Of a DNA stretch of 64,000 bases, positions 4,047 through 36,718 are shown piece after piece. The notes below the pieces were generated by a model. That model searched no databases. It was not told where the DNA came from and saw only the letters and a list, made by a program, of their open reading frames with translations. The translations under genes were made by a program, and so were the position numbers. This DNA comes from an uncultured Victivallales bacterium (lineage in GTDB: Bacteria > Verrucomicrobiota > Kiritimatiellia > UBA8416). Location: assembly GCA_964576795.1 (NCBI GenBank), contig CAZNWT010000005.1, positions 17,696-81,695 of the forward strand, in the 5' to 3' direction. How positions within the stretch are numbered: the first letter of the stretch is position 1; the number at the start of each line of letters is the position of its first letter.

Positions 4047-4055
4047 TCTGAGTAA

Positions 4056-4086: not shown

Positions 4087-4195
4087 AGAACCTGACATTT
4101 CATGCCAGCCAACCCCCTGTCGTCGTACCTCCGTCGGATTATACAGGGTGGAAACTTACGGGTACTAGGCGTCGTGATGAATTGGTGGTTATTTC

Positions 4196-4288
4196 AACGT
4201 CCAACAACCAACGTCCAACGCCCAACTTCCAAGAGAGGGTTCCTCTTCGTTTGGCGTTGGTTGTTGGACGTTGGTTGTTGGGCGTTCG
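4196..4288. repeat. Palindromic CCAACG-rich dispersed element, copy 1
   Basis: caacgtccaacaaccaacgtccaacgcccaac…gttggcgttggttgttggacgttggttgttgggcg forms a long hairpin. A related copy lies at 16316-16388. Confidence 0.65.
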
Positions 4289-5087: not shown

Positions 5088-5110
5088 TACGGAATAGGGA
5101 AGGAGATACG

Positions 5111-5506: not shown

Positions 5507-5531
5507 GCTTTTGAATCGGTCTTCTTTTTCT

Positions 5532-6565: not shown

Positions 6566-6567
6566 GA

Positions 6568-7650: not shown

Positions 7651-7689
7651 GTGGTGTTTGCATTTTCAGTATAGGATGAGGCGGAACTG

Positions 7690-20744: not shown

Positions 20745-21674
20745 ATGGATTACCACACTCTTTTTGGCCCTGTTCCTTCGCGTCGTTTTGGACGGTCTCT
20801 GGGCATTGATTTGTTGCCCTTCAAAACCTGTAGTTTTGACTGCGCGTTCTGTGAGGTGGGGCGTACGACGAACTCTACTTGTGAGCGAGCGGAGTATGTG
20901 CCCACCTCGGTTGTCATTGAGGAGTTTCGGCACTGGTTGCTCAGAGGCGGGGCCGCCGATGTGATTACACTTGCTGGATCTGGAGAGCCAACGCTGCATC
21001 TGCACTTTGGTGAGATTATAGACGCCATCCGTGCGAGCTGTGACATTCCGATTGTGCTGCTGACCAACAGTACACTGTTGCATGTAGATGCGGTGCGAAA
21101 AGCGGCTGCAAAGGCGAATATTGTTAAGGGATCGCTTAGTGCCTGGGATTCCGAATCGTTTCAACGTATGAATCGTCCTGCACAGGGGTTGACGTTTGAT
21201 TCTGTTGTGACGGGCTTACGACTGTTCCGGAAGTGTTTTTCCGGGGCATTGTGGCTTGAAGTGTTTCTTTTGCGTGGTGTTAACGATGCGCCTGATGATG
21301 TTGCTCGGATTGCGGCGTTAGCCGAGAGCATTAGCCCGGACGTGATTCAGCTCAATACCGTGGTTCGTCCACCGGCTGATGCTACAGCAACAGCTCTTTC
21401 TCAGGGTGATCTGGAGCTGCTGGCACCTCTTTTTTCGCCGCCCGCAGAGATTATTGCCCGATTTTGTGCCTCCTCGCCGTCTCCAGCGGGGCTGCCGGTT
21501 ACGCCTCGGCATGTTCTTGCAATGTTGACGCGTCGCCCCTGTACGGAGAAAGACATTGCTGCCGCTTTTGATATCACACTGTCGGTAGCCGAAGCGATGG
21601 TTAACGTTTTGTTGGAGGATGGCGTCATTCGCCCGGTTGAACGGCCTGACGGGGTTTATTACGGGGCTGTGTGA
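20745..21674 (+). CDS. Radical SAM enzyme
   Basis: Its CxxxCxxC motif CSFDCAFC is preceded by GPVPSRRFGRSLGIDL, and there is a G-rich SAM-binding segment LAGSGEPT. Confidence 0.7.
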   Translation: MDYHTLFGPVPSRRFGRSLGIDLLPFKTCSFDCAFCEVGRTTNSTCERAEYVPTSVVIEEFRHWLLRGGAADVITLAGSGEPTLHLHFGEIIDAIRASCDIPIVLLTNSTLLHVDAVRKAAAKANIVKGSLSAWDSESFQRMNRPAQGLTFDSVVTGLRLFRKCFSGALWLEVFLLRGVNDAPDDVARIAALAESISPDVIQLNTVVRPPADATATALSQGDLELLAPLFSPPAEIIARFCASSPSPAGLPVTPRHVLAMLTRRPCTEKDIAAAFDITLSVAEAMVNVLLEDGVIRPVERPDGVYYGAV

Positions 21675-21705
21675 TCATTGCTCAATTTACTGACCTTTTA
21701 GTTCC

Positions 21706-21789
21706 CTGTAGCCTCGTGCGCCAGCGCGTGGACTGAGGACGTCGTGTCATCTGCGGCGGAGATCCTCCTGCTGGCGCAGGAGGCTACAG
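21706..21789. repeat. GTAGCCTCG…CGCCAG element, full hairpin copy
   Basis: Left arm ctgtagcctcgtgcgccagc and right arm gctggcgcaggaggctacag form a 20-bp stem with one mismatch and a ~45-nt loop, located in the secA leader. Confidence 0.65.
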
Positions 21790-21916
21790 AGACGATTCTT
21801 CTGTGCAAAGGTCTTGTAGGCAAATGACGCGTTTTGCATCCCTTTTGATCTGGCTATTGCGCCATGCCTGACGTAGTCTTTCATGCCAATTACACCCTTT
21901 TCTCGGAGACTATTTT

Positions 21917-24900
21917 ATGCAGTGGATTCTCAAAAAGTTTGTGGGTACGAAGAATCAGCGTGATGTGAAGAAACTTCGTCCGTTGGTAGATCGTATTAAT
22001 GTTTTGGAAGAGGAGTATCAGGCGCTTTCAGATGACCAGCTCAAGGGCAAAACGCAGGAATTTCGGGATCGTCTTGCTAAGGGTGAGACGGTAGACGATA
22101 TCATGTGTGAAGCCTTTGCGACTGTCAAAAACGCCTGTCGTCGTCTTCTTGGAACAACGGTTGATGTTTGTGGTCATGACCTTCTTTGGGAAATGGTCCC
22201 CTTTGATGTTCAACTTATCGGCGGTATTGTGCTGCATCAGGGTAAGATTGCCGAGATGCAGACGGGAGAAGGCAAAACGCTGGTAGCTACAATGCCGCTC
22301 TACCTCAACGCGTTGCCCGGCAAGAATGTCCATCTTGTGACAACGAATGATTATCTTTCTCGCCGTGATTCTCAGTGGATGGGTCATGTCTACACCTATC
22401 TTGGGCTGACGGTGGGGTGCATTCAGAACCAAATGAGCCCGGCGGAGCGGCGTGAGCAGTACGCCAAAGATATTACCTACGGCATGAATAGCGAATTTGG
22501 TTTTGACTATCTGCGTGACAACGGGATGGCGTATCGCCCTGAGGATCAGGTTCAGAATGGTTATCACTTTTCAATTATTGATGAGGTGGACAATATTCTG
22601 ATTGATGAGGCACGTACGCCGCTCATTATTTCAGGTCCTGCCCCAACCTCGTCCCATCAGTATTTTGAACTGAAACCGAAGGTGGAGAGGCTCGTGCGGC
22701 TTCAGCGCGATTTGTGCAACAAGATGGTGAGTGATGCGCAATCGCTGCTCAAGAAAGGGGATACCGAATCGGCTCAACTACTGATGTATCAAATTGGGCA
22801 CGGTATGCCGAAGCATACGCAATTCATGCATATGATGGAGGAGCCTTCGACTCGGAAACTGCGTGAGCAGATTGAGAATGCGATGCTAACGGATGTGCGC
22901 AAAGAGGAAGCCCGAGCATTGCGTGAAGAGCTTCACTTTAACATTGATGAACGAGGGCGTGACGCCAGTCTCACCGAGATGGGGTGTGGGACGTTGAACC
23001 CCAGTGATCCCGATATGTATGAGTTGCCCGATATGGTGTCGGCCATGGCGGAACTGGATGGTCAGGAGGATCTGGATGAAGAGGCTAAGACCCTTAAACG
23101 TCAGGAAATCCAGGCCCTTTTTGCAGATCGCAGTGAACGCATCCACAATGTTGACCAATTGATTCGTGCTTACTGTCTCTACGAGAAGGATGTCGAGTAC
23201 GTTGTCCAAGAGAATCAGGTGATGATTGTTGATGAGTACACCGGACGGTTAATGCCCGGTCGCCGTTGGAGTGACGGTTTGCACCAGGCCGTTGAAGCCA
23301 AAGAGGGTGTGAAGATTGAGCGTGAGACTCAAACGCTGGCAACCATCACGATTCAAAACTATTTCCGCATGTATGACAAGTTGGCGGGAATGACGGGAAC
23401 GGCTGAAACCGAAGCGGATGAGTTCCACCAAATCTATAAGCTGGATGTCGTCGTTATTCCGACAAATCGTCCGGTCCGACGGATGGATAGCAATGACGTC
23501 ATTTACAAAACCCAGCGTGAAAAATACAACGCATTGATTAAGGATATTTCCGATCGCCATCAGCGTGGTCAGCCAGTGCTGGTGGGCACGGTTACGGTTG
23601 ACTCTTCGGAACTCATTAGCCGAATGCTTCGGCGGGCCAATATTCCTCACAGTGTGCTGAATGCGAAGAATCATGAACGCGAGGCCGAGATTGTGACGCG
23701 TGCCGGACAGCCGGGTTCTGTCACGATTGCTACCAATATGGCCGGACGTGGTACGGATATTAAACTGGGCCTCGGTGTTGTCACGGTGCCACGCGATATT
23801 ATCATGTCTCAGACGGCGCTCAGCAGCAAGTATAAGGATACGACTTTAGGGGATTACCTCGAGGAGAATCCCTGTGGTTTGCATGTTGTGGGTTCAGAAC
23901 GTCACGAGGCTCGGCGTATTGACCGGCAGCTTCGTGGGCGTTGTGCGCGTCAGGGTGATCCCGGATCTTCCCGCTTCTACATTTCGCTTGAGGATGACTT
24001 GATGCGTTTGTTTGGGTCGGATCGTATTGCCAACATTATGAGTCGACTTGGGTTGGAAGAGGGACAGGAGCTTGAACATAGCTGGTTGAACCGTTCGATT
24101 GAGACGGCCCAGCGCCGAGTTGAGCAGCAGAACTTCTCGATTCGAAAACGTACGCTTGAGTATGACGATGTGATGAACATGCAGCGGGAAATCGTTTATG
24201 GATTCCGGGGTGATGTGGTGCGTTCCGATGCCGTTCGTGAGATCATTTTTGATATTATGAACGATGTCATTTTCAGCACGACTGAGGTCATGCTGGAGCA
24301 CATTTCTGATGCCACACTGCATGACTATGTTGAATGGGTGCAGCTCACCTTTCCTGTGCCGCTGCGCATCGATGAAATCAAGCGCAAAGGCGACGATGCC
24401 GAGTCCATCGCCGAAGAGGTATTCAAGCGTGTTGAGCGTGCTTATGGATTGAAGGTTTCGTTGGAGAATCCGGAATCGGTTCCCTATATGGAGCGGCAGG
24501 TGGTTCTTCAGGCGATTGATAACCATTGGCAGGAGTACCTGCGAGCTATGGATGGGCTTCGCCAGGGGGTGGGGCTCCGCGCCTATGGCCAACGCGATCC
24601 CCTAGTTGAGTACAAACGCGAAGCCTATACGATGTTTGAGCATCTCATGAGTGACATCAAGACCGAGATCGTGAATACCGTGTTTCGTACGACGACAGCG
24701 GTGGATACATTTGAGCAATTTCTGGAGTCCTTGCCCCAGACACTGATTCACGATGAGGTATCTATGCTGGGTGGCGGGAGTTCGCTATCACAGCCGGGGC
24801 AGCCACCCCAGCCATCGGAACCCTCTGCGAGTTCGAGAATGTCTCTACCGTCTCTACAGGATGACAAGGTGGGTCGCAATGATCCGTGTCCTTGCGGCAG

Positions 24901-24934
24901 TGGAAAAAAGTACAAGAAGTGCTGTGGGCAATGA
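21917..24934 (+). CDS. secA: Preprotein translocase ATPase SecA
   Basis: 1005 aa with DEAD-like motor domains and a C-terminal zinc-binding tail CPCGSGKKYKKCCG. Confidence 0.95.
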   Translation: MQWILKKFVGTKNQRDVKKLRPLVDRINVLEEEYQALSDDQLKGKTQEFRDRLAKGETVDDIMCEAFATVKNACRRLLGTTVDVCGHDLLWEMVPFDVQLIGGIVLHQGKIAEMQTGEGKTLVATMPLYLNALPGKNVHLVTTNDYLSRRDSQWMGHVYTYLGLTVGCIQNQMSPAERREQYAKDITYGMNSEFGFDYLRDNGMAYRPEDQVQNGYHFSIIDEVDNILIDEARTPLIISGPAPTSSHQYFELKPKVERLVRLQRDLCNKMVSDAQSLLKKGDTESAQLLMYQIGHGMPKHTQFMHMMEEPSTRKLREQIENAMLTDVRKEEARALREELHFNIDERGRDASLTEMGCGTLNPSDPDMYELPDMVSAMAELDGQEDLDEEAKTLKRQEIQALFADRSERIHNVDQLIRAYCLYEKDVEYVVQENQVMIVDEYTGRLMPGRRWSDGLHQAVEAKEGVKIERETQTLATITIQNYFRMYDKLAGMTGTAETEADEFHQIYKLDVVVIPTNRPVRRMDSNDVIYKTQREKYNALIKDISDRHQRGQPVLVGTVTVDSSELISRMLRRANIPHSVLNAKNHEREAEIVTRAGQPGSVTIATNMAGRGTDIKLGLGVVTVPRDIIMSQTALSSKYKDTTLGDYLEENPCGLHVVGSERHEARRIDRQLRGRCARQGDPGSSRFYISLEDDLMRLFGSDRIANIMSRLGLEEGQELEHSWLNRSIETAQRRVEQQNFSIRKRTLEYDDVMNMQREIVYGFRGDVVRSDAVREIIFDIMNDVIFSTTEVMLEHISDATLHDYVEWVQLTFPVPLRIDEIKRKGDDAESIAEEVFKRVERAYGLKVSLENPESVPYMERQVVLQAIDNHWQEYLRAMDGLRQGVGLRAYGQRDPLVEYKREAYTMFEHLMSDIKTEIVNTVFRTTTAVDTFEQFLESLPQTLIHDEVSMLGGGSSLSQPGQPPQPSEPSASSRMSLPSLQDDKVGRNDPCPCGSGKKYKKCCGQ

Positions 24935-24936
24935 GG

Positions 24937-25022
24937 CGGGGGGGGGGTAAATTGGGAAATTTGAAATTGGAGAATTTGAAATTTGGAAATCTCAAATTGG
25001 CAAACCTGAAACCTGAAAGCTG
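24937..25022. repeat. G10 homopolymer followed by degenerate GAAATTGG-type tandem repeats
   Basis: cggggggggggtaaattgggaaatttgaaattggagaatttgaaatttggaaatctcaaattggcaaacctgaaacctgaaagctgaaatgg. Confidence 0.7.
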
Positions 25023-25024
25023 AA

Positions 25025-26725
25025 ATGGGGAGTGGAATGCTGGGCCTCTTTTCTGTTCCAATGCTGCTTAGGACCTTTGCGGTTCTCCTTTCGAGTTTTC
25101 TGTTGGCATGTGCGTTTCCGCTACCACCGGTGTTGACATCCATGGAGGGGGCATCCGCCGCTTGGCTGGGACTGATTCCGCTGATATTGGTGTCCCGACT
25201 GACGCGCCCGAAGCTGGCCTTCTGGTGGGGATGGGTGTGTGGTTTTCTGTTTTGGCTGGTTTCGGCTGCTTGGGTGCTGGAACTTCGTAATTCCTGGGGA
25301 TGTTTGCCGGTCGTCATTTTGGCGTGGGTTGCCCTAGCTGCCTATTGTGCTCTCTACATGGGGGTCTTTGCCTATTTGCTCGCAAGCGTCTGGCCACTAC
25401 GTTCTGAAGGAAATGAGAGTGCTCGATCGATCGGGTCTCTTCGTCGCGTAGCACTTGTTCTGCTGACGCCCGTAATTTGGGTAGGTTGTGAATATCTCCG
25501 TGCGGTGCTGTTTACAGGGTTTCCGTGGAATGCTCTGGGGGTCAGTCAGTACCGCAATATTGCGATTATTCAGACCTCAGGCTGGGGCGGTGTCTATGCT
25601 GTCTCTGGACTCATTGTCCTCTTGAATGCCGCTATTGCGATGACGGTGTTGCGCATCGCTGTTGAGTTGCGTTGTAGGGAACGTCGACGCCGTCGGGTTC
25701 ACTTTGAACTGATGATAGGGCTGATTGCGGTTGCGATGAGTTGGTCGTGGGGGGTGCGCACTGTGCGGCGTTCGGATCGTATCTCTGCCGAAGATGCGCA
25801 TATTAGGGTTACAGCGATACAGCCTCAGACGCGTCAGATTCAGAAATGGTCTGAGGCGCATTGCGCGTCTATTTATCGCGTGCTTCAGGAGCAGACGGAG
25901 CTTGCGGTAATGGGGCGACCGGATCTTGTGATTTGGCCGGAAACGGCCATTCCTGATTTGCTGAGAACAGCACCAACCGTTCAGGAGATGGTGTCTGCTT
26001 TGGTGATGCCCGGCACGATGTTGTTGGTCGGGGCTATGGATTTTGAGCAATCTGATATGGATACAGTCTATTACAATGCAAGCTTCCTTGTTGACGCAGA
26101 CGAAGGCATTGTGGGGTCTTATCGTAAGCGTCATCTTGTTCCCTTCGGGGAGTACATTCCCTTCGAAAATCAGATTGGGTTGATCAAACGTCTGGCGCCG
26201 TTGGGATTCAGTTGTATGCCGGGAGGGAAGAGTGGCCTAATGGAGCTTCCTGTTGGAAGTGGCTCCCCAAATCAAACTGCGTTGTTCGGTGTTTTGATCT
26301 GTTTTGAGGATGTGTTCCCCTATTTGGCGCGCCGGGATGTCAAGACGGGTGCCCGTTTTCTTGTCAACCAGACAAATGATGCCTGGTTTGAAGACTCTGC
26401 CGCGTCCCGTCAGCACATGGCCAATGCTGTTTTTCGGGCGGTTGAAAATCGTGTGCCACTGGTGCGTTGTGCAAATACTGGTGTTACCTGCTATGTGGAC
26501 AGTTTTGGGAGAATCATGGAGATGCTTGAGGGGGACGAGGGTTGCACCAACCTCAGGGGATTTTCGGTTTCTGAGATGCGTTTGGCTGCGGCGGGGATGC
26601 CGATGACACCCTATACGCGATTTGGCGATTGGCTGTTTGCACGGCCTTGCGCTATGATAACCTTGGTTTTGTTAATGATGGCGTGGTTGAAATCCTCGAG
26701 ATGGAGAGCAAAGCGTCGCGTTTGA
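25025..26725 (+). CDS. lnt: Apolipoprotein N-acyltransferase
   Basis: N-terminal multi-TM region plus a CN-hydrolase domain (LICFEDVFP, CANTGVT). Confidence 0.8.
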   Translation: MGSGMLGLFSVPMLLRTFAVLLSSFLLACAFPLPPVLTSMEGASAAWLGLIPLILVSRLTRPKLAFWWGWVCGFLFWLVSAAWVLELRNSWGCLPVVILAWVALAAYCALYMGVFAYLLASVWPLRSEGNESARSIGSLRRVALVLLTPVIWVGCEYLRAVLFTGFPWNALGVSQYRNIAIIQTSGWGGVYAVSGLIVLLNAAIAMTVLRIAVELRCRERRRRRVHFELMIGLIAVAMSWSWGVRTVRRSDRISAEDAHIRVTAIQPQTRQIQKWSEAHCASIYRVLQEQTELAVMGRPDLVIWPETAIPDLLRTAPTVQEMVSALVMPGTMLLVGAMDFEQSDMDTVYYNASFLVDADEGIVGSYRKRHLVPFGEYIPFENQIGLIKRLAPLGFSCMPGGKSGLMELPVGSGSPNQTALFGVLICFEDVFPYLARRDVKTGARFLVNQTNDAWFEDSAASRQHMANAVFRAVENRVPLVRCANTGVTCYVDSFGRIMEMLEGDEGCTNLRGFSVSEMRLAAAGMPMTPYTRFGDWLFARPCAMITLVLLMMAWLKSSRWRAKRRV

Positions 26726-26766
26726 CTGATCGAATGACGATGTACATCTGGACAAGGAGAGGGACA

Positions 26767-27898
26767 ATGATTGACGATATTAAACAACGTTTAGATAAGT
26801 TGAACGCGCGCATGGCGGAGATGCGAGGTTATCTTTGACATCCCAGCACGTGAGAAACGATTTTCTGAATTAGAAGCCGAGAGTAATGGCGTTGAATTCT
26901 GGAATGATCCAGGACATGCCCGGGAGATCATTGAGAAGACAAATCAGCAGCGTACCATTCTTAAGCCTTTTGGAGATATTGAGTCGGCGCTAGAGGAAGC
27001 TATGGTGATGCTTAATTTGGCGGAGCTCGAAGAGGATGACGCTCAGCGCAACCAGGCGGTTGAATACATTGACGAATCTATTCGAGATGTTGACTCCTCC
27101 TTTGAAAAGCTTGAGATACAATCGCTGCTTAGTGCTGAGATTGATTCAAGCAATGCCTATCTAACACTACATGCGGGGGCTGGAGGAACAGAGTCCTGCG
27201 ACTGGGCAGATATGTTGTTTCGGATGTATGGTCGGTACAGCGAAATGCAGGGCTTTCAGTTTGATCTTCTTGAGTTTCAGCCAGGGGATGAGGCAGGCAT
27301 CAAGCGGGCTACGGTCCAGATTTCGGGAGCTTACGCCTATGGATATCTGAAGGCGGAACGCGGGGTCCATCGTTTGGTTCGAATCAGTCCGTTTGATTCA
27401 AACAAACGTCGGCATACATCCTTTGCAGCCGTTGATGTTGTGGCTGAAATCCCTGATGATATTGAGGTCGAGATTTCCGATTCTGACATTCGGGTTGATA
27501 CGTATCGCGCCAGTGGGGCTGGAGGGCAGCATGTCAATACGACGGACTCCGCAGTACGGATTACGCATCTTTCAACTGGGCTTGTTAGTGCGTGCCAAGC
27601 GGAGCGATCGCAGCACATGAACCGCGCGAAAGCGATGAAGATGTTGCGCGCCAAGGTGTATGAGAGGATCCTTGCCGAAAAGCGCAAGGATATGGAGAAA
27701 TTCTATGGGGCGAAGGGCGAGATTGCCTGGGGTAGTCAGATTCGCTCCTATGTGTTGCAGCCCTATACCATGGTCAAAGATCACCGCTGTGGGGTTGAGA
27801 CCTCAAATGTTCAAAAAGTTCTGGATGGCGACATTCAGATGTTCATCGAGGGCTGGTTGAAGAGTAAAGCCGAGAACAAAAAAGCCGTTTTCGACTAA
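26767..27898 (+). CDS. prfB: Peptide chain release factor 2 with a programmed +1 frameshift at CTT TGA C (26833-26839)
   Basis: Frame 0 reads MIDDIKQRLDKLNARMAEMRGYL then TGA. The +1 frame continues DIPAREKRFSELEAE… through SPFDSNKRRHTSFA and the GGQ motif. An SD-like gaggt lies just upstream of the CTT TGA C shift site. Confidence 0.9.
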
Positions 27899-28156
27899 GG
27901 TTCATTTTTCGGCGCGTTAGGATTGTTTAGGGGTGAGACTTGGGGTGATATGGAGTGCCGTGACGGAGTCACCGCTTTGGATTCGAGCAAAGTGTGACAC
28001 GGATAAGAGTCGTAGACGGAACCGATCACGTTGGATGCATTCACGCGCTCCGCGCTCACGGAAAGCGGCGATTCCATCGCCGCACTCCAAAAAGGGTGCC
28101 CAAATGATGGTGAGGCGCTTGGGTGTGGTTTGAAGTGTTGAAAGAGGAAGACGCTA

Positions 28157-29041
28157 ATGGCAATTTCGAGTATGACTGGATATGGACGGGGAGAGGCCGC
28201 TTCCGGTGGGGTTACGGTGACCGTTGAGCTGAGTTCTGTGAACCGCAAGCAATTTGATATGCGTGTGAATCTGCCGCGGTCGCTTGTGGCATTGGAATCG
28301 CAGGCATCCAAGGTGGTGCATGCCTATGTGTCCCGGGGATGTGTGACGGGTAGTGTTTGCATCTCAGTGGAAAACTCAACGCGAAGCGGCGGCATTCAGG
28401 TTGATATGGCTGCGGCTTCGGCTTATGTGAAAGCGTTACGGGGGGCGGGAAAGCAACTTGGGTTAGTTGATGATTTATCAATAGGGTCATTGGCTCGGCT
28501 GCCCGATATCATTCGGTTTGAAAATGCGGCTGAGAATTCTGAGAAGGTTTGGCCGGTACTGAAACGCGCTTTGCGGAGCGCTCTTGTGAAGTTGGTCGAA
28601 ATGCGTGCTCAGGAGGGAGCATCCCTTGAGAAGGATCTCACAAAACGATTTTCAAAACTAGAGCGCCGCGTGGGGCAGATACAACGTTTAGCGCCCAGTG
28701 TTCCGCGTCACTATCGAAAGGCGCTTTTGGCGCGCATCGAAAAGGCGAATCTATCGGTGGGTCTCAGTGATGAGCAATTGGCCAAGGAAGTGGCTATGTT
28801 TGCCGATCGTTGTGATGTCACAGAGGAGATTGTGCGTTTAGGGAGTCACTTTGAGCAGGTTCAGAAACTGATGCAGAGTGAGATTCCTTCCGGTCGCGCC
28901 TTTGATTTCCTGTGTCAGGAATTTTTGCGAGAGATCAATACAATTGGTTCAAAGGCAAATGATTCTCGACTTTCGCAGCATGTGATTGCATTCAAGACGG
29001 AGCTGGAGTGTATTCGGGAGCAGATTCAGAACGTTGAATAG
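28157..29041 (+). CDS. yicC: YicC-family stress-induced protein
   Basis: N terminus MAISSMTGYGRG with the YicC_N + DUF1732 architecture. Confidence 0.75.
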   Translation: MAISSMTGYGRGEAASGGVTVTVELSSVNRKQFDMRVNLPRSLVALESQASKVVHAYVSRGCVTGSVCISVENSTRSGGIQVDMAAASAYVKALRGAGKQLGLVDDLSIGSLARLPDIIRFENAAENSEKVWPVLKRALRSALVKLVEMRAQEGASLEKDLTKRFSKLERRVGQIQRLAPSVPRHYRKALLARIEKANLSVGLSDEQLAKEVAMFADRCDVTEEIVRLGSHFEQVQKLMQSEIPSGRAFDFLCQEFLREINTIGSKANDSRLSQHVIAFKTELECIREQIQNVE

Positions 29042-29042
29042 T

Positions 29043-29636
29043 ATGACGAAACCGTTGCTAATTGTAGTGTCGGCTCCTTCTGGGGCCGGAAAGAGTACGC
29101 TCTGTGATCGTTTGCTTGCGGAGGACTCAAGTATTGTGTATTCCGTTTCTTGTACAACGCGCCTTCCGCGCGGAGAGGAAGTCGATGGTGTTGCTTACTA
29201 TTTTCTTTCGCCAGAGCAATTTGAGTCGCGCGTCTGCGCCGGGAACTTTCTTGAGCATGCGACGGTGCATGGGTATCGTTATGGAACACTGAAGGAGACG
29301 GTTCGTTCTGCCATGACTATGGGTAAGAGCGTCATGATGGATATTGATGTTCAAGGGGCTTTTCAGGTGCGGGAGACGTTAGCCACGCTTCGTGAAGATG
29401 ATTCTATGGTGCGTGGTTTTGTGGATCTATTTATTCAACCGCCTTCTATGGATGCCTTGCGGTTTCGCCTTGAGGGGCGGGGAGAGGATGCCACGGATGT
29501 GATTGAGCATCGTTTGAAGAATGCCACCCAGGAAATGGCGTGTGCGGATGCCTATCGTTATACGGTTGTAAACGATAAGCTTGATATTGCGCTCACCGAG
29601 ATTCGTAATATCATAGCGAGGGAGGTCACGAAATGA
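29043..29636 (+). CDS. gmk: Guanylate kinase
   Basis: MTKPLLIVVSAPSGAGKSTL P-loop and YYFLSPEQFE. The ATG at 29043 abuts the yicC stop. Confidence 0.85.
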   Translation: MTKPLLIVVSAPSGAGKSTLCDRLLAEDSSIVYSVSCTTRLPRGEEVDGVAYYFLSPEQFESRVCAGNFLEHATVHGYRYGTLKETVRSAMTMGKSVMMDIDVQGAFQVRETLATLREDDSMVRGFVDLFIQPPSMDALRFRLEGRGEDATDVIEHRLKNATQEMACADAYRYTVVNDKLDIALTEIRNIIAREVTK

Positions 29637-30175
29637 ATGTATTGCTAGGGGTTACTGGGTCGATTGCGGCATACAAGGCGGCTGCATTAGTTCGACTATT
29701 TCAGAAGCGAAATTGTGATGTACAGGTTGTGATGACTCCGTCTGCAACTGAGTTCGTTGGTGAGCTGACGTTCCGTTCGCTTTCGCAACATCCCGTCCAT
29801 GTTGAGATGTTTCCGAAGACGGAGTCTTGGCGGCCGGATCATATTTCTCTGGGGGAGTGGGCTGACGTGTTTCTGATTGCGCCCTGCACTGCAAATGTGA
29901 TCGCTAAGCTTGCACATGGCATTACTGACAACCTGCTTCCCTGTACCGCTCTGGCGATGAAGGCCCCCTTGGTTGTGGCCCCGGCGATGAACGATCGTAT
30001 GTGGCTGCATCCGGCGACCCAGGAGAATGTGGTATGTCTGAAGGGGCGAGGCGTAACGATTGTAGACGTGGGTTCAGGGGATCTTGCCTGCGGTTATCAG
30101 GCGCAAGGTCGTATGGCCAATCTTGATGCTATTGTTGATGTTGCACTGTTGCGAGGAAAGGAGTTCAGAGCATGA
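29633..30175 (+). CDS. coaC: Phosphopantothenoylcysteine decarboxylase (stand-alone HFCD flavoprotein, CoaC half of Dfp)
   Basis: GVTGSIAAYKA, PAMNDRMWLHPATQEN and DLACGYQAQGRM align with the Dfp N-terminal domain. There is no CoaB domain. Confidence 0.7.
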   Translation: MNVLLGVTGSIAAYKAAALVRLFQKRNCDVQVVMTPSATEFVGELTFRSLSQHPVHVEMFPKTESWRPDHISLGEWADVFLIAPCTANVIAKLAHGITDNLLPCTALAMKAPLVVAPAMNDRMWLHPATQENVVCLKGRGVTIVDVGSGDLACGYQAQGRMANLDAIVDVALLRGKEFRA

Positions 30176-30351
30176 GTAGGCGATTTGTTGCAGGACTGGT
30201 TTTGATCGGTGTTGCGGTTTTAATTCTTCTTCTGAATACGAATGGTGAAGTTAAAATCAACTTTTTCTTGTTTAAGATCGAAATGCTCACGTCGCTGGCT
30301 TTCTTCTTCTTTTTAGCAGTTGGCGTGTTTATCGGGGCCCTGTTGCGATGA
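30172..30351 (+). CDS. Small membrane protein (59 aa, LapA-like), absent from the ORF track
   Basis: MSRRFVAGLVLIGVAVLILLLNTNG…LTSLAFFFFLAVGVFIGALLR has two predicted TMs. Its start and stop overlap coaC and the DUF192 gene as ATGA. Confidence 0.4.
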   Translation: MSRRFVAGLVLIGVAVLILLLNTNGEVKINFFLFKIEMLTSLAFFFFLAVGVFIGALLR

Positions 30352-30710
30352 GGAGGGCGCGGCTTGTTGCTGCTGGTGAGGTCATTGTTCCTCGCCTTCT
30401 GATTGCGACCCGAATGCTGGATCGAATGCGAGGTCTGTTGGGACGTGCGAGTCTTCCAGAGGGAACCGGAATGTTTCTGAAACCGTGTGGTTCTATCCAC
30501 ACGGTGGGAATGCATTTTTCACTGGATGTTATTTTTCTGGATCGTCAGCAACGAGTTGTTCGTACGGCACAGAGGTTACACCCAAATTGGTTTGCGCTTG
30601 GCGGGCACAGCGCACATGCGGTTGTGGAGTGTGCGACCGGGTGGTTGGATGTTTCATCACTTACGCGAGGGGATCGCCTAGAGATCCTCTTCGATACTGT
30701 CGGTGCGTAA
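30348..30710 (+). CDS. DUF192 (COG1430) protein
   Basis: RMRGLLGR…GMFLKPCGSIHTVGMHFSLDVIFLD matches the DUF192 pattern. Confidence 0.6.
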   Translation: MRRARLVAAGEVIVPRLLIATRMLDRMRGLLGRASLPEGTGMFLKPCGSIHTVGMHFSLDVIFLDRQQRVVRTAQRLHPNWFALGGHSAHAVVECATGWLDVSSLTRGDRLEILFDTVGA

Positions 30711-32042
30711 CGGCTTTGCGGATAGAATTTCGTTATGTGGTATCGTTTTGAAGATGCCGGGATGTGTTTCCAGTTTTACGTTTTTCTGTGCGTCGACCTC
30801 AATCAGAAGCCCCGTGTAGACTTCTGTGCTGGTTTTGATTTCGTAGTTCGGAATGAAACGGCGTTTTAATTTGAAATGACGCGTTAGAATTTGGTCTCGT
30901 ACGATATCAATGCCTGCCTTACTTTCGTAGTAACCGACCTTTGTGAGGGTGATCACATGGCCCCCCGGGGGCAGCAGGTCGATTGATAACTCCTGTGAGA
31001 TTCGATCCGTAGCGTTGGTTCCTGTTTCTGTGCTTCCCACGCTCTTGCCATCGAGTACTACATCAACCTCGGCGGGTTCCGTCGTGATTCTGAGTTCTCC
31101 CGCATTTCGCTGGAGGCGAAACTCTTCAACAATATGCTGGTCGCGGCCAACGTCTATGTTGCGCAGTAGTATGTCGTGTGCTGCCATTTCTGCCCGGACA
31201 CGATAGGTGTTTGGAAGCAGAGTTTCCAGTTTGACAGGGGATTTTCCGCGGAATTGATTATCAACATAGATACGGGCACCAACAGGGATAGATACAATCG
31301 TGAGATCTGATGGAATGGGCTTGAGGATTGCCGTGATGGTTTGCGTTTCGCCGGCGGCGAGTTTGAACGATTCGTTGTAGAGTTCGTAACCCTCGAGAGT
31401 AAGTTCAAGTCTGAGGTCTCCAGACGGGATGCGATCAACAGAGCACGGCGTTGTTCCTCGCGCGATTCCGCTAAGGGTTACAGTGGCGCCAGTGGGTTCC
31501 GAGTCGAGCTTTAGCGTGGCTGAGTCGGAGGTTAGCGTTATGTCGTGTTTTGTGGGGCAACGTCCCTCAATGGTGAGTTCAATCTCTTTGGATATGTAAC
31601 CGGGTTTGTGTAGGCGGGCTCGGTAGTGCCCCAGTGGGAGATCCGCAATGAGAAGCGGGGTTGCGCCTCGATGTGCTCCGTCGATCTCCACCTCAGCACC
31701 GACGGGTATAGAGTGAATGAGAATAAGCCCACGTGTGGCGCTCAGGCGAAATTCGCGTGATAGCTTCTCCATCGAATCCAAGGTGACCGTTTCGCGAATG
31801 GGGTCATAATCGCGTTTCTCGACGAGCATCAGATGTTTTCCAGGGGCGAGGTCTGTCAGGGTTAAGGGGGTGACGCCGCGTGGGGTTTCGTCAATGGTTA
31901 CTGTTGCCCCGAGGGGATCGGATTCGATATGAAGCTGCGCGGGTGCCGCTAGAGCGGCGGACCGTGCGAACGTTGCGAGGAGTATTCCACAGATGAGACG
32001 CGTAAGGGTGCTGCGGGTGCATTTGTATCGGAGTGCTGTCAT
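30678..32042 (-). CDS. PEGA-domain repeat protein (secreted or envelope)
   Basis: Signal peptide. Roughly five consecutive PEGA-type domains, each about 70 aa with a PxGAxV… core (e.g. SDPLGATVTIDETPRGVTP, SIPVGAEVEIDGAHRGATP, SIPVGARIYVDNQFRGKSP). Confidence 0.7.
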   Translation of the reverse strand: MTALRYKCTRSTLTRLICGILLATFARSAALAAPAQLHIESDPLGATVTIDETPRGVTPLTLTDLAPGKHLMLVEKRDYDPIRETVTLDSMEKLSREFRLSATRGLILIHSIPVGAEVEIDGAHRGATPLLIADLPLGHYRARLHKPGYISKEIELTIEGRCPTKHDITLTSDSATLKLDSEPTGATVTLSGIARGTTPCSVDRIPSGDLRLELTLEGYELYNESFKLAAGETQTITAILKPIPSDLTIVSIPVGARIYVDNQFRGKSPVKLETLLPNTYRVRAEMAAHDILLRNIDVGRDQHIVEEFRLQRNAGELRITTEPAEVDVVLDGKSVGSTETGTNATDRISQELSIDLLPPGGHVITLTKVGYYESKAGIDIVRDQILTRHFKLKRRFIPNYEIKTSTEVYTGLLIEVDAQKNVKLETHPGIFKTIPHNEILSAKPLRTDSIEEDL

Positions 32043-33331
32043 TTCAGAGATTCCAGTTGTGCGTCTACTTCGATGAGCTTGTTACGTGCTTCTGCATGTC
32101 TTGAATCCTCTCGGTTAGGAATCAATTCCAGCAGAGTTCGTAGCTCTTCAGCGGCGGTTTCCCACTCGCGGAGGCGAATAGCGCGTTCGGCTTGGAAGTT
32201 CTGTTCTTCGTATCGTTGTATAAGGTCTTCCTCGCACTGACGTTGGGATACGAGAATATCGCCATAAAACGGCGGCTTTTCTTCGACGGTTTCGAGATAC
32301 CATGCGGCTTCCTTGAAACTCTTGATTGCAGCGGCGAGGTTGCCGAGAGCAATAAGGCGCTCTGCGTATAACTTCTTTCCGAGAAGGTAGGTGTCATTTG
32401 CCATTGTGATCAGCTTCTCCGTGGAAAACTGAATGGCCCAAAATCCAAGTTCAACGTGTCCGAAATCCTCAAGCTTATCTCGGACCATGGTGAATATATC
32501 GGGTTCGATGCAGTTGGTGACACGCACCTGATGGGTGTCTTTTCCAATGGTGATTGATATTGTGGATTGCTCAAGCGCATTTGGATTGACGCCGGGGTAG
32601 GTCTCTTTGAGATCAAGAAATCCAGATTGACTTAATGTTTCGGCGAGGCCTTCAAGGAGATCGGGTTGAACCTGTTTAGATTCGCGAACGGTACGGTTGT
32701 TCTCCAGATCGTCTATGTCGATGGAGAGAATTCCTTCAGGAGTGATGGTTAGGCGGTAGTAAAAAATATTGCCGTTTGAGGCTTCGATTTTTTCGTAATG
32801 CACGGCCAGCGTCATATCGACTTCTACCACAGATATGGCAATTGGTGCTGGGGTGGGTGCTGGGCGATTCAGAACTTTCAACATATAGGCAGTTGCAGCG
32901 ACTGCAATGACGATGCAGAGAGCGGTGAGGAGTGTTCCAATGCCGAATTGTTTAGAGGGTTTCTGGGGCGTCGCGTTTCCGGAGAGTCCAAGGTTGACCG
33001 GATGATCTGAGGGTGTACTTGGAATGGTGATACGTCCATCGTTAACGACGCATAGGACGGAGTCTCCAATGTGAATGTGATTGCCACTGTAGATGGGAGC
33101 CTCGACGATGGGTTTATTGTTGAGGAGTGTCTCGTTGGCACTTCCCAAGTCTGCAACCCAGAGCCCGTCATCTTTAAAGAAAATGCGGCAGTGGTGGCGG
33201 GAGAGCAATGGGTCAACTAGGACGATATCGTTCTTTGATGAACGCCCCACGCGCGCACCCTCGGGGGGGATTGTGAACTGCTTCCCCGCATCCTCGCCAT
33301 GTTCTACTCGAATGTGCTCAATACTTTTCAT
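32039..33331 (-). CDS. FHA-domain membrane protein with a TPR-like C terminus
   Basis: N-terminal FHA (GARVGRSSKNDIVLVDPLLSRHHCRIF…NGT-like), one TM (IGTLLTALCIVIAVAATAYML), and a C-terminal helical region. Confidence 0.65.
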   Translation of the reverse strand: MKSIEHIRVEHGEDAGKQFTIPPEGARVGRSSKNDIVLVDPLLSRHHCRIFFKDDGLWVADLGSANETLLNNKPIVEAPIYSGNHIHIGDSVLCVVNDGRITIPSTPSDHPVNLGLSGNATPQKPSKQFGIGTLLTALCIVIAVAATAYMLKVLNRPAPTPAPIAISVVEVDMTLAVHYEKIEASNGNIFYYRLTITPEGILSIDIDDLENNRTVRESKQVQPDLLEGLAETLSQSGFLDLKETYPGVNPNALEQSTISITIGKDTHQVRVTNCIEPDIFTMVRDKLEDFGHVELGFWAIQFSTEKLITMANDTYLLGKKLYAERLIALGNLAAAIKSFKEAAWYLETVEEKPPFYGDILVSQRQCEEDLIQRYEEQNFQAERAIRLREWETAAEELRTLLELIPNREDSRHAEARNKLIEVDAQLESLK

Positions 33332-33415
33332 AGTACCTCTCTCGAAACTGTAGCAGATGGTGTATAGAGCGACAAGCCTTCTGCGACGGGATTAGGGTTA
33401 TGGAGCTTCGTATAA

Positions 33416-34984
33416 TTAAGCGTCGGGTTGTCGGTAGCGAGAACGCTCGATTCCAAGGTGTTTGATTCGATAGTTGAGAATGCGGGGGGTTGTCTGCAGG
33501 TGACGTGCTGCTGCTGCGGCGCTGCCACGATATTTTTTGAGTGCGTCTACCAGTAACTCACGTTCATAGGCGTTGACCATGTCTTTTAGGCTGGCCCCTT
33601 CGGTCGGAATCAGTCCTGTTTTGGTTTGCTCTTCGGTCTGTAGAGAGGGGGGCAAACTGTAGGCGTGAATGACATTATCCGCGCTGGTTAGCACGGCGCG
33701 TTCAATACAGTTTTCAAGCTCCCTGACATTGCCTGGCCAATAGTAGGCCATCATCATATTGATAGCGGCAGAGGAGATGCGCTTTATGTTCTTGCCGTAG
33801 GCTGCATTGTATTTCTGGACGAAATGATCCGCCAACAGAATGATGTCGGATCGCCGATCCCGTAGGCGGGGAAGCATGATTGGAAAAACGTTCAGTCGGT
33901 AGTAGAGGTCCTCGCGGAATCGGTTTTCACTGATTGCTTTTTCTAGATCAATGCTGGTTGCTGTAATGACGCGAACATTGACGTTATGGGTTGTCGTTCC
34001 GCCCACGCGCTCAAAGCAACGTTCTTGAAGCACGCGCAAGAGTCGCACTTGGATCGCGGTGCTGATGTCTCCAATCTCATCGAGAAAGAGTGTGCCTCCG
34101 TTGGCGAGTTCAAAGCGTCCTTGTCGCTGTTGCATGGCTCCAGTGAAAGCCCCTTTCTCATGTCCAAACAGTTCGCTTTCAATAAGATTTTTGGGAAGTG
34201 CTGCGCAGTTCACGCAGACAAAAGCATTGTTGCGCCGTGGACTGCTGAAGTGGATAGCGCGAGCCACAAGTTCCTTGCCGGTTCCCGATGCCCCCCGAAT
34301 CAGAACGGTTGCGGTGCTGTCGGCCACCTGCGCAATTTGGTCGTAGATCGCACGCATGCCGTGGCAGTTTCCGATGATGTTGGATGGACGGTAGCGGTCT
34401 CCCAGTTCTTGCTTTAGTTTGCGGTTCTCTGCCAGAAGGCTGTCGTGCTTTTCCATTTGCTGGCGAATGCGAGAGACGGCTTCGGCGAGCAAGTCGGCAA
34501 CAAGTTTCAGAAAGTTCAGATCCTGCTGTAGTTCTTCTTCGGTGGCGAGGGGGCGGTCAATGCTGATTGTGCCCACGACTGCGTTTTGATGTGAGATGGG
34601 GACACAGATAAAGGCGAGCTTGTTGGCTTTTCGGGTCTGAGTTCTGTCCAAAAAGTTTGGATTTGTTGATACATCAGGAATAAGAGCGGGTTGTCCCGTT
34701 AGTGCCACCGTCCCGGTAATTCCCTCTCCCAGTCTGTAGGAGCCCAGTTGGCGCTCTTTGGCAGAGAGACCGCGAGAGGCTTCAATATCAAAAATGTCTG
34801 AGTCCAAACGGCGAAGTGTAAGTGTTGCCCGCGCGAGCCCCATTTGGGTATCCAGAATATCCAGAACTTTATCGAGTAGATCTGCAATGCCATGTTGGTG
34901 TGCCATGGCTTGTGAGATGCGATATAGGGTTTCAAGCTCTTGTTCAGCTCGACTTCTGTTTCGTGTTGGTGATTCTATATTCAT
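33416..34984 (-). CDS. σ54-dependent transcriptional activator (GAF–AAA+–HTH; NifA/FhlA-like)
   Basis: GAF domain. The σ54-interaction module carries GASGTGKE, ESELFGHEKGAFTGA and RVITATS, and a C-terminal Fis-type HTH follows. Confidence 0.85.
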   Translation of the reverse strand: MNIESPTRNRSRAEQELETLYRISQAMAHQHGIADLLDKVLDILDTQMGLARATLTLRRLDSDIFDIEASRGLSAKERQLGSYRLGEGITGTVALTGQPALIPDVSTNPNFLDRTQTRKANKLAFICVPISHQNAVVGTISIDRPLATEEELQQDLNFLKLVADLLAEAVSRIRQQMEKHDSLLAENRKLKQELGDRYRPSNIIGNCHGMRAIYDQIAQVADSTATVLIRGASGTGKELVARAIHFSSPRRNNAFVCVNCAALPKNLIESELFGHEKGAFTGAMQQRQGRFELANGGTLFLDEIGDISTAIQVRLLRVLQERCFERVGGTTTHNVNVRVITATSIDLEKAISENRFREDLYYRLNVFPIMLPRLRDRRSDIILLADHFVQKYNAAYGKNIKRISSAAINMMMAYYWPGNVRELENCIERAVLTSADNVIHAYSLPPSLQTEEQTKTGLIPTEGASLKDMVNAYERELLVDALKKYRGSAAAAARHLQTTPRILNYRIKHLGIERSRYRQPDA

Positions 34985-35419
34985 ATATATGCTCCTCTAA
35001 GGAAAACTGGGTTCTTCCTCGTTTTCACGCTTAGTTGCCACTCCTAGTTGACGCGTTTAGTCGCAATTGACTTACCGATAATGAAGCGGTTCGGCTAAGT
35101 GTACCCGACTAGGAGTATGGACTAAGAGTATCGGCTAAGAACTTTTTACATTAAGTATTACATATTTGTATCAAATATAAAAGTTGTCAACATAAATGTA
35201 TTGTTTGTTTATGGTGATTTGGTTTGTGTTGTTCGAGATGACATTCATAAGGCGTTTATTATAAAATAGATGCGACTAATGTTTGCGTCCGGTTTGAGAT
35301 GTTGACACGTCATTTGCGATATAGCATCGCAGTTCGAACGATTGGGTTATTTCAAGTTGGTCAAAGCGTGAGATTAGCGTGTTTGTATACGCTGGCAAGA
35401 AAAGGGGAGGGTGAAGAGT

Positions 35420-36169
35420 CATGAGAGTGATGAAATGCATGTTGATGGGGACGATTATTACGGGAGCACTTGTGTGTGGTAGTGCAGTGTGGGCGTAGGA
35501 TGCTGCGACTACAGATGCTATTGCTGCAGCCAAAGATGAGGTGACGCTGAACTTAGATATTGTATGGACGTGTATAGCGGCATTTCTCGTGTTTTTTATG
35601 CAGGCAGGGTTTGCCATGGTTGAGACGGGATTTACCCGTGCAAAGAATGCAATCAACATCATGATGAAGAACCTGATGGACTTCTCCATTGGCACCCTTG
35701 CCTTTTATCTGGTTAGTTTTGGGCTCATGTTTGATGTCACAAAGGGGGTTATTTTTTGGCTTTTCGGGGGGTGGACCCTGCTGGCAGCGGTTGGGAATGG
35801 ACGTTTTTGATTTTTCAGACGGTGTTTGCTGGCACGGCCGCAACCATCGTGTCTGATGCGATGGCTGAGCGTACAAAGTTCAGTGGCTATGGAAGTAAGA
35901 TTTACAAGATGTCTGTGACCAATGCCTTGGGGTGTGGCCAGCAGATGGGATATCACGAGTCCTATCGAGGTGTGGATGTTGAGGTCAACCTTCTCAAGAA
36001 ACTGCGCCTCGAGATTGCGGTGAATGCGGATTATGTTAAAGAGACGGTGGATGCCATTATAGAGGGTGCTCGCACGGGGGAGATTGGCGATGGAAAGATC
36101 TTTGTCTTGGACCTGCTGGAGTGCATCCGAATCAGAACCGAGGAAAAAGGGAAGGCGGTGGTTGGGTAG
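35420..36169 (+). pseudogene. Decayed ammonium transporter (amt) fused by deletion to a P-II (glnK/glnB) C-terminal remnant
   Basis: Signal peptide MRVMKCMLMGTIITGALVCGSAVWA then TAG. The Amt N-terminal core continues in another frame (LDIVWTCIAAFLVFFMQAGFAMVETGFTRAKNAINIMMKN). After a third frameshift comes …AERTKFSGY, joined directly to P-II residues ~20-112 ([22 protein letters not shown]…[21 protein letters not shown]). Confidence 0.7.
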
Positions 36170-36316
36170 GCACGTTAACCTAAAAAGAGCAGTTGAAATG
36201 CTCTTGCTGGGGTCAAGCCGTATGTTGAGTAGAGTGCTGAGAATGAATAAATGTTAAGAAAATAATTGTTGCGCCTTTCAGAGTGGGCGCGACAGCAAAA
36301 TAAGGTAGGAATCAAA

Positions 36317-36643
36317 ATGAACAGAACATTGAACGTTGTGGGAATGGTGGCGGTGATGTTGGTGGCTGGATCTGGGCTTTACGCTACAGAAGCCAGTCTT
36401 TCTTTGGACTTCGCAAGTGCGTATGTGTTACGTGGGGTCATATTCAATGATGGGGCTGTAACCCAGCTTGGTCTTGAGGTCAGTGATTTAGGCGGATTGA
36501 CCGTGGGTGCCTGGGGTAATGTTGATATTGACGACTACGACGGTGCGCTTGAGGGAGGTCAGATGAGTGAGATCGACGTGTATGCTTCGTACGATCTTCC
36601 TTTGGAAGACCCCGTGGCTGTTAGTGTTGGCATTGACTTTTAA
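36317..36643 (+). CDS. Short secreted Gcw_chp (TIGR02001)-like protein
   Basis: Signal peptide MNRTLNVVGMVAVMLVAGSGLYA, then SLDFASAYVLRGVIFNDGAVTQ…TVGAWGNVD…EIDVYASYD, ending in a C-terminal Phe. At 108 aa it is much shorter than typical family members. Confidence 0.4.
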   Translation: MNRTLNVVGMVAVMLVAGSGLYATEASLSLDFASAYVLRGVIFNDGAVTQLGLEVSDLGGLTVGAWGNVDIDDYDGALEGGQMSEIDVYASYDLPLEDPVAVSVGIDF

Positions 36644-36677
36644 AATCTTTAGCCGAAAGCTACAGAAATGAGTGAAT

Positions 36678-36718
36678 GCTCACTGCGGATTTCGCTGGGT
36701 TCCGCAGTGAGCTTTTTG
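36678..36718 (+). terminator. Rho-independent terminator
   Basis: gctcactgcgga-(loop)-tccgcagtgagc followed by ttttt. Confidence 0.75.

Follow-up and report, generated by a model that had tools for sequence, protein, structure and literature searches.

FHA–PEGA pair and σ54 activator on the minus strand

The stretch of DNA analyzed here (64,000 nt from an uncultured Victivallales bacterium; hereafter the window) carries three co-directional open reading frames (ORFs) on its minus strand between positions 30678 and 34984, with exactly the boundaries given in a first-pass annotation of the letters. In the order of transcription, they encode a predicted enhancer-binding protein for σ54 (EBP), a membrane protein with an FHA domain (called FHA-TM for its transmembrane, or TM, segment) and a secreted protein with PEGA repeats. 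The first-pass annotation had taken the three for a single module of overlapping genes, acting in Ser/Thr-phospho-dependent signalling or assembly at the envelope. Our analysis indicates that the interval consists of two functionally separate units, the EBP gene and the FHA–PEGA pair, which lie side by side only in this lineage. The meaning of the pair comes from the context of a Tad-like pilus operon, which is invisible from the window alone.

The FHA-TM and PEGA genes do overlap, through an ATGA shared by stop and start codons. The EBP and FHA-TM genes, however, are 84 nt apart. This spacer has a Shine-Dalgarno-like GAGAGAGG ahead of the FHA-TM start codon, and a scan of its whole length found neither a terminator-like hairpin nor a σ54 promoter.

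We surveyed 80 species-level loci bearing the FHA-TM gene in genomes of the Planctomycetes-Verrucomicrobia-Chlamydiae (PVC) group and Kiritimatiellota, reading up to 8 kb on each side and searching with the window proteins. The PEGA gene lies directly after the FHA-TM gene in 73 of the 74 loci that extend 1.5 kb or more downstream, and the two overlap by 4 nt or are separated by ≤3 nt in all five annotated contexts; the ATGA overlap of the window probably reflects translational coupling of FHA-TM and PEGA. The set of PEGA homologues also parallels the FHA-TM set, with matching identity ranges and constant lengths. The EBP gene, in contrast, adjoins the FHA-TM gene in a single locus of the 80 (L006), and was not found within 8 kb upstream in L003 and L004, the nearest relatives with readable upstream DNA. 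Conservation of gene order in other genomes therefore nearly refutes the triad and clearly does not refute the pair. We conclude that FHA–PEGA is a genuine, strongly conserved two-gene envelope module, specific to Kiritimatiellota/PVC, and that its products form a widespread, uncharacterised two-protein family. The EBP–FHA–PEGA triad is no functional unit, and hence does not count as a new σ54/FHA signalling system.

The first-pass description of a bitopic FHA protein with a helical, TPR-like periplasmic region was borne out. FHA-TM matches the Pfam FHA profile at aa 27-89 (63.9 bits) and has one hydrophobic segment. An AlphaFold2 (AF2) model built on 20 diverse homologues (pLDDT 82.5) shows an FHA β-sandwich, on the cytoplasmic side, and a TM helix at aa 131-154, after a disordered linker, followed by a Mago-nashi-like α/β domain and an all-helical TPR-like domain (Table 1). 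The phosphothreonine (pThr) contacts typical of FHA domains (Gly-Arg, Ser-x-x-His and Asn) correspond to G29-R30, S44, H47 and N66, all invariant in the 20 homologues. Within the linker, which is otherwise variable and has Ser/Thr/Pro-rich flanks, a V-D-L-G motif is near-invariant; it could be a docking or phosphorylation site.

Homologues of FHA-TM number in the hundreds at full length (33-72% identity), all in PVC/Kiritimatiellota metagenome-assembled genomes (MAGs). Against Pfam and NCBIfam, the FHA-TM and PEGA proteins matched nothing besides FHA, Yop-YscD_cpl, weak DUF6438 and PEGA. When the 20 members of the FHA-TM alignment (A1) were run individually against Pfam, a weak DUF6438 match was found in five (best E-value 0.0011) and TPR_14 once. 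The C-terminal 266 aa gave no significant phmmer match to PDB sequences. An exhaustive search with the C-terminal domain yielded 442 clusters at 50% identity; the best 150 of these 442 share one architecture, and none among them has another domain arrangement hinting at function.

The architecture of FHA-TM, with a cytoplasmic FHA domain, a TM segment and a periplasmic domain, is reminiscent of YscD/PrgH of type III secretion systems and of Fha/TagH of type VI secretion systems. However, the matches to curated models for TagH (32.8 bits, cut-off 120.25), GltG (31.2 bits, cut-off 650) and FhaB/FipA (55.2 bits, cut-off 125) all fall far short and cover essentially the FHA region only, and the periplasmic ring-forming domains that follow FHA and TM in the YscD/PrgH inner-ring family are missing. 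With every curated model failing save the generic FHA and PEGA profiles, FHA-TM does not appear, on sequence grounds, to be a member of the YscD, TagH or Kil families.

The PEGA protein likewise agreed with the earlier description of a secreted protein with about five PEGA domains. The Pfam PEGA profile (PF08308) matched in five stretches (206.7 bits) behind an N-terminal signal-like segment, and the AF2 model (pLDDT 86) has five β-sandwich repeats and a small C-terminal β domain, i.e. the tandem repeats on a secreted protein by which PF08308 is recognized. In Foldseek searches of the PDB, this model retrieved generic tandem β-sandwiches only (the TIE protein, Gram-positive pilins, Ig-like ectodomains), none of them a clue to function; we also found no functional study of the PEGA domain in the literature. 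A 705-aa PEGA homologue (P0202) was considered as a possible FHA–PEGA fusion and rejected, its extra part being unrelated to FHA-TM.

Table 1. Positions of the features described in the text, in window coordinates
Feature	Position (nt)	Strand	Protein position	Description and basis
EBP gene (GAF–AAA+ σ54–HTH_8, NifA-family)	33416-34984	minus		522 aa, intact; ORF and Pfam
EBP–FHA-TM spacer	33332-33415	minus		84 nt
FHA–TM–periplasmic protein gene	32039-33331	minus		430 aa; ORF and Pfam
Cytoplasmic FHA domain	33032-33331	minus	aa 1-100	AF2 model
V-D-L-G motif of disordered linker	32987-32998	minus	aa 112-115	alignment of homologues
TM segment	32870-32956	minus	aa 126-154	sole hydrophobic segment
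Mago-nashi-like/DUF6438-like α/β domain	32447-32809	minus	aa 175-295	AF2 model
TPR-like all-helical domain	32045-32440	minus	aa 298-429	AF2 model
ATGA overlap	32039-32042	minus		FHA-TM stop/PEGA start; sequence
PEGA-repeat protein gene (secreted)	30678-32042	minus		454 aa; ORF and Pfam
PEGA signal peptide		minus	about aa 1-33	N-terminal hydrophobic segment; no lipobox
Five PEGA β-sandwich domains	30870-31940	minus	aa 35-391	Pfam, AF2
Small conserved β domain	30711-30845	minus	aa 400-444	RRFIPxYE…PGI.KTI motif; AF2, alignment A2
DUF192 gene	30348-30710	+		converges on PEGA 3′ end, 33-nt overlap; Pfam
Housekeeping block (DUF192, flavoprotein, Gmk, YicC, RF2, Lnt, SecA, radical-SAM)	20745-30710			first gene DUF192; Pfam
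Degenerate σ54-like site TGACACGTCATTTGC	35303-35317	+		one-mismatch match, −24 GG changed to GA
Decayed amt–glnK–Gcw_chp locus	35422-36709	+		divergent from EBP; sequence, ORFs, Pfam, tblastn

Tad-like operon and Ser/Thr kinase upstream of the pair in relatives

The upstream ORFs of all loci were clustered and then checked by Pfam and tblastn. In 36 of the 68 loci with enough upstream DNA, a tadC gene was found on the same strand at ≤2.5 kb, with the FHA-TM gene directly after it; the gap was ≤132 nt in 27 of these 36 (mostly 16-132 nt). The operon upstream of the pair in these 36 loci encodes a TadG-like protein (PF13400), a TadE-like protein, an unknown secreted protein, RcpC/CpaB, the CpaF/TadA ATPase (a T2SSE protein that itself has an N-terminal FHA domain, hence FHA-CpaF) and the two T2SSF platform proteins TadB and TadC. 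Two small Flp prepilins with the G/xxxxEY motif are also present in the contexts with called genes (L083, L166/L167). The full ancestral-type operon (L083 and L166) would comprise two flp genes, genes for TadE/TadG-like pseudopilins and for two unknown secreted proteins, RcpC, FHA-CpaF, TadB and TadC, and lastly FHA-TM and PEGA. We saw no gene for a secretin (RcpA/CpaC), RcpB, TadZ/CpaE, a prepilin peptidase (TadV/CpaA) or TadD in the five annotated operon contexts, and we found no study of Kiritimatiellota Tad pili in the literature.

A divergent, receptor-like Ser/Thr kinase lies beside the tad operon in all four contexts read far enough (L083, L167, L168, L169). In L083 and L166/L167, it is 1105-1162 aa long. 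The kinase domain is N-terminal and cytoplasmic, and the large external region has leucine-rich repeats (LRRs) in three of the four contexts; a single TM segment was found in the two contexts checked for it, L167 included. The first-pass annotation had noted that no kinase or phosphatase is adjacent to the three genes. This is true of the window, where neither a kinase nor a PP2C phosphatase occurs among the genes around the triad, and of about 84 kb of the same contig. The kinase beside the tad operon of the relatives is the kinase that had seemed to be missing. The Ser/Thr-phospho link proposed earlier is plausible for the pair, since relatives have a bitopic Hanks-type kinase beside the ancestral operon.

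In the same four contexts, a secreted protein of 328-389 aa is always encoded directly downstream of the kinase and on the kinase strand, between it and the divergent tad-like operon (L083 372-1520, L167 3740-4849, L168 3291-4460 and L169 3246-4232, all minus strand). It has a Cys-rich, zinc-ribbon-like N-terminus with weak BSD2_CRD/DnaJ CXXCXGXG matches.

The window itself has no such operon. No tad gene lies within about 30 kb of its pair, and neither a tad gene nor a Hanks kinase was found in contig positions 11386-93251 (the window and a further ~20 kb). What it does retain is the other flank, i.e. the convergent DUF192 gene and the housekeeping block that this gene opens. A convergent DUF192 gene follows PEGA in 38 of 64 related loci, and the housekeeping block of the window also follows the pair in L083, L085 and L166. 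In L083 and L166, the tad operon, the pair and a window-type DUF192–…–SecA–radical-SAM block occur together. In a neighbour-joining tree of the FHA-TM proteins, linkage to tad is seen on the deepest branches as well as in the group sister to the window clade, and the unlinked state is scattered over several separate clades. The linkage is therefore ancestral and has been lost several times, with the ancestral order reconstructed from these comparisons as kinase ↔ tad operon – FHA – PEGA ↔ housekeeping block. The housekeeping block marks the ancestral position of the pair. The window lineage has lost the part upstream of the FHA-TM gene, leaving the pair an orphan without its operon, and this limits what the window itself can show.

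Some rearranged loci still have tad genes near the pair. The pair lies in front of the operon in L018 and L030, and beside it in L032; in L084, it has moved with tad away from the housekeeping block, with three genes inserted between tad and the pair. Conversely, the tad operons of L168 and L169 have no pair behind them; unlinked arrangements of both the pair and the tad operon thus occur in some genomes. The lone exception among the 74 loci surveyed for the downstream gene, a rumen Kiritimatiellae MAG (L074, 7046-9335), has overlapping tadC and FHA-TM genes and has lost the PEGA gene.

A possible phosphothreonine-reading accessory of a Tad-like machine

We give even chances to the proposal that the pair is an uncharacterised, pThr-reading and envelope-spanning accessory of a Tad machine resembling Kil of Myxococcus xanthus. 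The FHA-TM and PEGA genes would ancestrally be the last two of a Tad/Flp-type (type IVc filament) operon. The kinase would phosphorylate threonines on components of the machine, and the FHA domain of FHA-TM would dock on these pThr marks, as would that of CpaF. FHA-TM may hold the secreted five-PEGA protein with its periplasmic Mago-like and TPR-like domains, the two proteins forming a trans-envelope scaffold or adaptor that would couple phospho-signalling to pilus assembly or to the activity of the machine. In the window clade, a rearrangement would have taken the tad operon and kinase away from their place ahead of the pair. Purifying selection would have kept the pair itself, presumably for use with a tad locus at another site of the genome.

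The tie to Tad is suggested by the shared orientation with tadC, the operon-like spacing, the proximity kept after rearrangements, the common FHA/kinase theme and the Kil precedent. Several points weigh against it. The case for a functional tie consists wholly of gene order and a shared domain theme, and the unrelated DUF192 gene is linked to the pair (38 of 64 loci) about as often as tad (36 of 68); ancestral synteny alone could therefore explain the adjacency to tad. The pair is also well conserved in many lineages that have no tad gene within 8-30 kb, the window included, and among the loci read, no genome was placed that holds both an unlinked pair and an unlinked tad operon. Lastly, searches of Pfam, NCBIfam and the PDB gave no homology of FHA-TM or PEGA to a described Tad component (TadD, TadZ, RcpA/B, TadF/G).

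Kil is a Tad-like apparatus that serves the contact-dependent killing of prey, and its core needs additional FHA/TPR proteins (Seef et al. 2021, PMC8460266). Its ATPase KilF is fused to an FHA domain and KilD combines FHA and TPR; the Kil clusters also hold MXAN_4648, an FHA+TPR protein with similarity to kinases, and MXAN_4649, a PrgH-like FHA protein encoded beside the platform protein KilH, and a phospho-signalling layer has been proposed (PMC8460266). The Kil and Kiritimatiellota operons share a Tad-type core, a CpaF-family ATPase with an N-terminal FHA domain, extra FHA proteins and the lack of TadD. In the Kiritimatiellota operons, an FHA protein with a TPR-like domain follows directly after the platform genes, and a Ser/Thr kinase is linked. 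This likeness is one of gene and domain descriptions. There are also clear differences. KilD is predicted to be cytoplasmic, whereas FHA-TM is bitopic with periplasmic Mago-like and TPR-like domains; the Kil clusters hold the secretin KilC and the prepilin peptidase KilA, neither of which is seen in the Kiritimatiellota operons; these have a TadG-like gene, which Kil lacks, and no PEGA protein is listed for Kil. Kiritimatiellota are non-predatory polysaccharide degraders of the PVC group, and to our knowledge their members are not known as predators.

A TPR protein, TadD, follows tadC in canonical Tad/Flp systems, and a periplasmic alignment complex (RcpC) has its anchor in the inner membrane (PMC12307814). 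Like the tad operon of Aggregatibacter actinomycetemcomitans, cpa of Caulobacter crescentus and rcp/tad of Pseudomonas aeruginosa, the operon of the relatives groups Flp, TadE/TadG-like, RcpC/CpaB, TadA/CpaF, TadB and TadC, ending here with the pair. However, FHA-TM sits in the inner membrane with its FHA domain in the cytoplasm, unlike the outer-membrane lipoprotein TadD; no PEGA protein is known as a Tad component, and the window has no tad gene. By analogy, the closest functional counterparts of the pair would be the FHA/TPR accessory proteins of the Kil machine, and the pair is best classed within kinase/FHA-regulated type IV filament systems.

A possible, if doubtful, alternative is that the two genes form an envelope module of their own, with tad as a neighbour by inherited synteny. 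The pair might, for example, act in cell division or envelope biogenesis under the control of a Ser/Thr kinase, much as FhaB/FipA of mycobacteria. This would fit with the retention of the pair in every lineage, including about 29 of 68 loci without a tad gene in reach, with L085, where it stands alone behind a divergent gene, and with the existence of tad operons that lack it, in addition to the equally frequent DUF192 linkage. The best NCBIfam match of the FHA domain is indeed FhaB/FipA (55 bits). However, this score is far under the cut-off of 125 bits and concerns the FHA domain only. An autonomous module would also leave unaccounted for the strand and spacing shared with tadC (mostly 16-132 nt), the proximity to tad maintained in the rearranged L018, L030, L032 and L084, the L074 FHA-TM gene that is still beside tadC despite the loss of PEGA, and the FHA theme common to CpaF and the adjacent kinase.

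Returning to the Tad-accessory proposal, a bolder version of it, which we rate as rather unlikely, is that Kiritimatiellota have a widespread Kil-like subtype of type IV filament without operon-encoded secretin, TadZ and TadD. In such a subtype, the receptor-like LRR kinase would switch on the machine via FHA-CpaF and FHA-TM, and an FHA-TM/PEGA scaffold, with the Mago-like/TPR domain anchored in the inner membrane and holding a periplasmic rod of five PEGA domains, would replace the canonical alignment or pilotin parts. If so, the survival of the pair when unlinked from tad would reflect an essential structural role.

In any case, the family is tied by gene order, throughout Kiritimatiellota, to a Tad-like operon that is rich in FHA domains and associated with a kinase. 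We know of no phospho-regulated Tad-like machine with experimental backing other than Myxococcus Kil. If the pair is indeed an accessory of such a machine, a second Kil-like version, phylogenetically distant and built differently (its FHA adaptor bitopic, a PEGA protein as partner and an operon without secretin), would help to separate the signal-sensing from the envelope-spanning parts, and the PEGA domain would gain its first functional context. For annotation, two ubiquitous "hypothetical" genes of Kiritimatiellota receive names and a context.

The σ54 activator and its decayed nitrogen locus

The EBP matches the earlier description of a GAF-σ54-HTH activator. Pfam detects Sigma54_activat (PF00158; 241.8 bits, cut-off 20.2), AAA_lid_14 (101.5 bits), GAF (57.2 bits, cut-off 22.4) and HTH_8 (23.7 bits, cut-off 22), and the GAFTGA loop and the Walker A and B motifs can be read in the translation (GHEKGAFTGA, GASGTGKE, LFLDEIGD). 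The protein thus has the AAA+ domain, Fis-type HTH and sensory domain of bacterial enhancer-binding proteins. The same GAF, AAA+ and HTH arrangement is found in the NifA/NtrC family, and the NifA model TIGR01817 aligns over nearly the full length (aa 15-513). The score (509.3 bits) is just below the cut-off of 528.85, however, and there are no nif genes in the window; the protein is NifA-like, but we rejected the identity as a true NifA.

The relatives of the EBP adjoin genes linked to nitrogen. Its closest full-length relative in Joint Genome Institute (JGI) metagenomes (L086, 53% identity) is followed by a perfect σ54 promoter, TGGCACGCCCTTTGC, and then by genes for Amt, P-II and GlnA, and a second relative (L089) adjoins a homocitrate-synthase-like gene. 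L006 has a good σ54 promoter, TGGCACGCCTGCTGC, in front of a divergent, intact Gcw_chp porin gene. The window has remnants of comparable genes, amt–glnK–Gcw_chp, divergent from the EBP gene, identified by Pfam (Ammonium_transp, P-II, Gcw_chp) and by tblastn with the intact Amt of L086 and Gcw of L006. In the amt remnant, a TAG interrupts the frame at 35497, within the signal peptide, and a large internal deletion leaves only about 140 aa, fused to a 5′-truncated glnK; the P-II (glnK) remnant (35756-36169) lacks its first ~27 aa, and Gcw_chp has a premature stop at 36643. These lesions may be real decay or an assembly artefact, the locus lying outside the only independent assembly, L002. As an annotation, a decayed amt–glnK locus is documented here beside an intact regulator.

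The degenerate σ54-like site TGACACGTCATTTGC faces away from the EBP gene and lies about 105 nt ahead of the decayed amt start; intact σ54 sites at the equivalent places in L006 and L086 support this reading. A scan of the whole window gave 76 σ54 matches at ≤2 mismatches, compared to 68 ± 8 expected, i.e. no enrichment, and TGACACGTCATTTGC was the only site meaningfully placed. The same scan found no minus-strand match ahead of the FHA-TM or PEGA genes. The σ54 promoter that the first-pass annotation proposed to seek near the module is thus absent ahead of the FHA-TM gene, in L006 as in the window.

Taken together, the sequence data lead us to a best reading of the EBP as a nitrogen regulator of the NifA family whose targets next door have been lost. 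Its natural targets would be the divergent, σ54-dependent amt–glnK–Gcw_chp genes, now pseudogenes in the window; in this it would differ from NifA, which acts on nitrogenase genes. Some observations fit less well: TGACACGTCATTTGC lacks the −24 GG and one-mismatch matches occur at chance frequency in the window. In addition, an alignment of the regions upstream of the EBP gene in the window and L006 showed no convincing conservation of a shared upstream activating sequence. Possible read-through transcription aside, the EBP has no connection with the FHA–PEGA pair, because it is adjacent in only one of 80 loci, no σ54 promoter lies ahead of FHA-TM and its relatives stand beside nitrogen genes.

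Such read-through is the basis of an explanation that we find improbable, namely that in the window and L006, after tad had left, FHA–PEGA came to be co-transcribed with the EBP gene and would be expressed from the EBP promoter, the proteins themselves having no link. It would be consistent with the short EBP–FHA gaps (84 nt in the window, about 70 nt in L006) without a terminator-like hairpin, and with an EBP gene that is intact despite the decay of its divergent targets. However, the pair evidently has a promoter of its own in other unlinked lineages (L085), and the arrangement is limited to two species-level genomes. The original idea of one Ser/Thr-phospho-dependent module of EBP, FHA-TM and PEGA, with the σ54 activator as output or regulator, could still appeal to the co-directional genes, the 84-nt gap and the identical order in one other species-level genome, but is already largely refuted by synteny (79 of 80 loci, L003 and L004 among them, lack the adjacent EBP), is further opposed by the missing σ54 promoter, by the ties of EBP relatives to amt/glnK/glnA and Gcw_chp with σ54 promoters, and by a GAF sensor with neither an FHA-binding nor a receiver domain, and is in our view highly improbable.

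The triad is flanked in the window by SecA, Lnt, RF2, YicC, Gmk, flavoprotein and DUF192 genes on one side, and by tRNA-Thr, EF-Tu, secE-nusG and rpl-rpoBC on the other. Within the housekeeping block, the canonical programmed +1 frameshift motif of the RF2 gene, CTTTGAC (26833-26839, plus strand), lies just upstream of the prfB ORF (27002-27898). The Pfam match of this ORF begins only at profile position 63, in line with a frameshifted prfB.

Other genes of secretion type are present on the contig. A complete-looking type II secretion/type IV pilus-like cluster occupies window positions 1191-9716 on the plus strand (GspE, GspF, G-type pseudopilins, GspK, PilM/N-like GspL and GspM), with a Peptidase_MA_2 gene inserted in it and, after it, genes for a MORN-repeat protein (9720-11066) and a PEP-CTERM protein (13939-14742). 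Outside the window, a second T2SSF gene with pseudopilin-like genes follows rpoA–L17 on the same contig (L171 15065-20919). Neither of these clusters showed a GspD secretin.

The GC skew is positive (0.08-0.25) in every 2-kb bin of the window (1-64000), and nearly all of the long genes are on the plus strand, the EBP–FHA–PEGA unit being among the few minus-strand units. The entire window apparently lies on one replichore with a strong strand bias.

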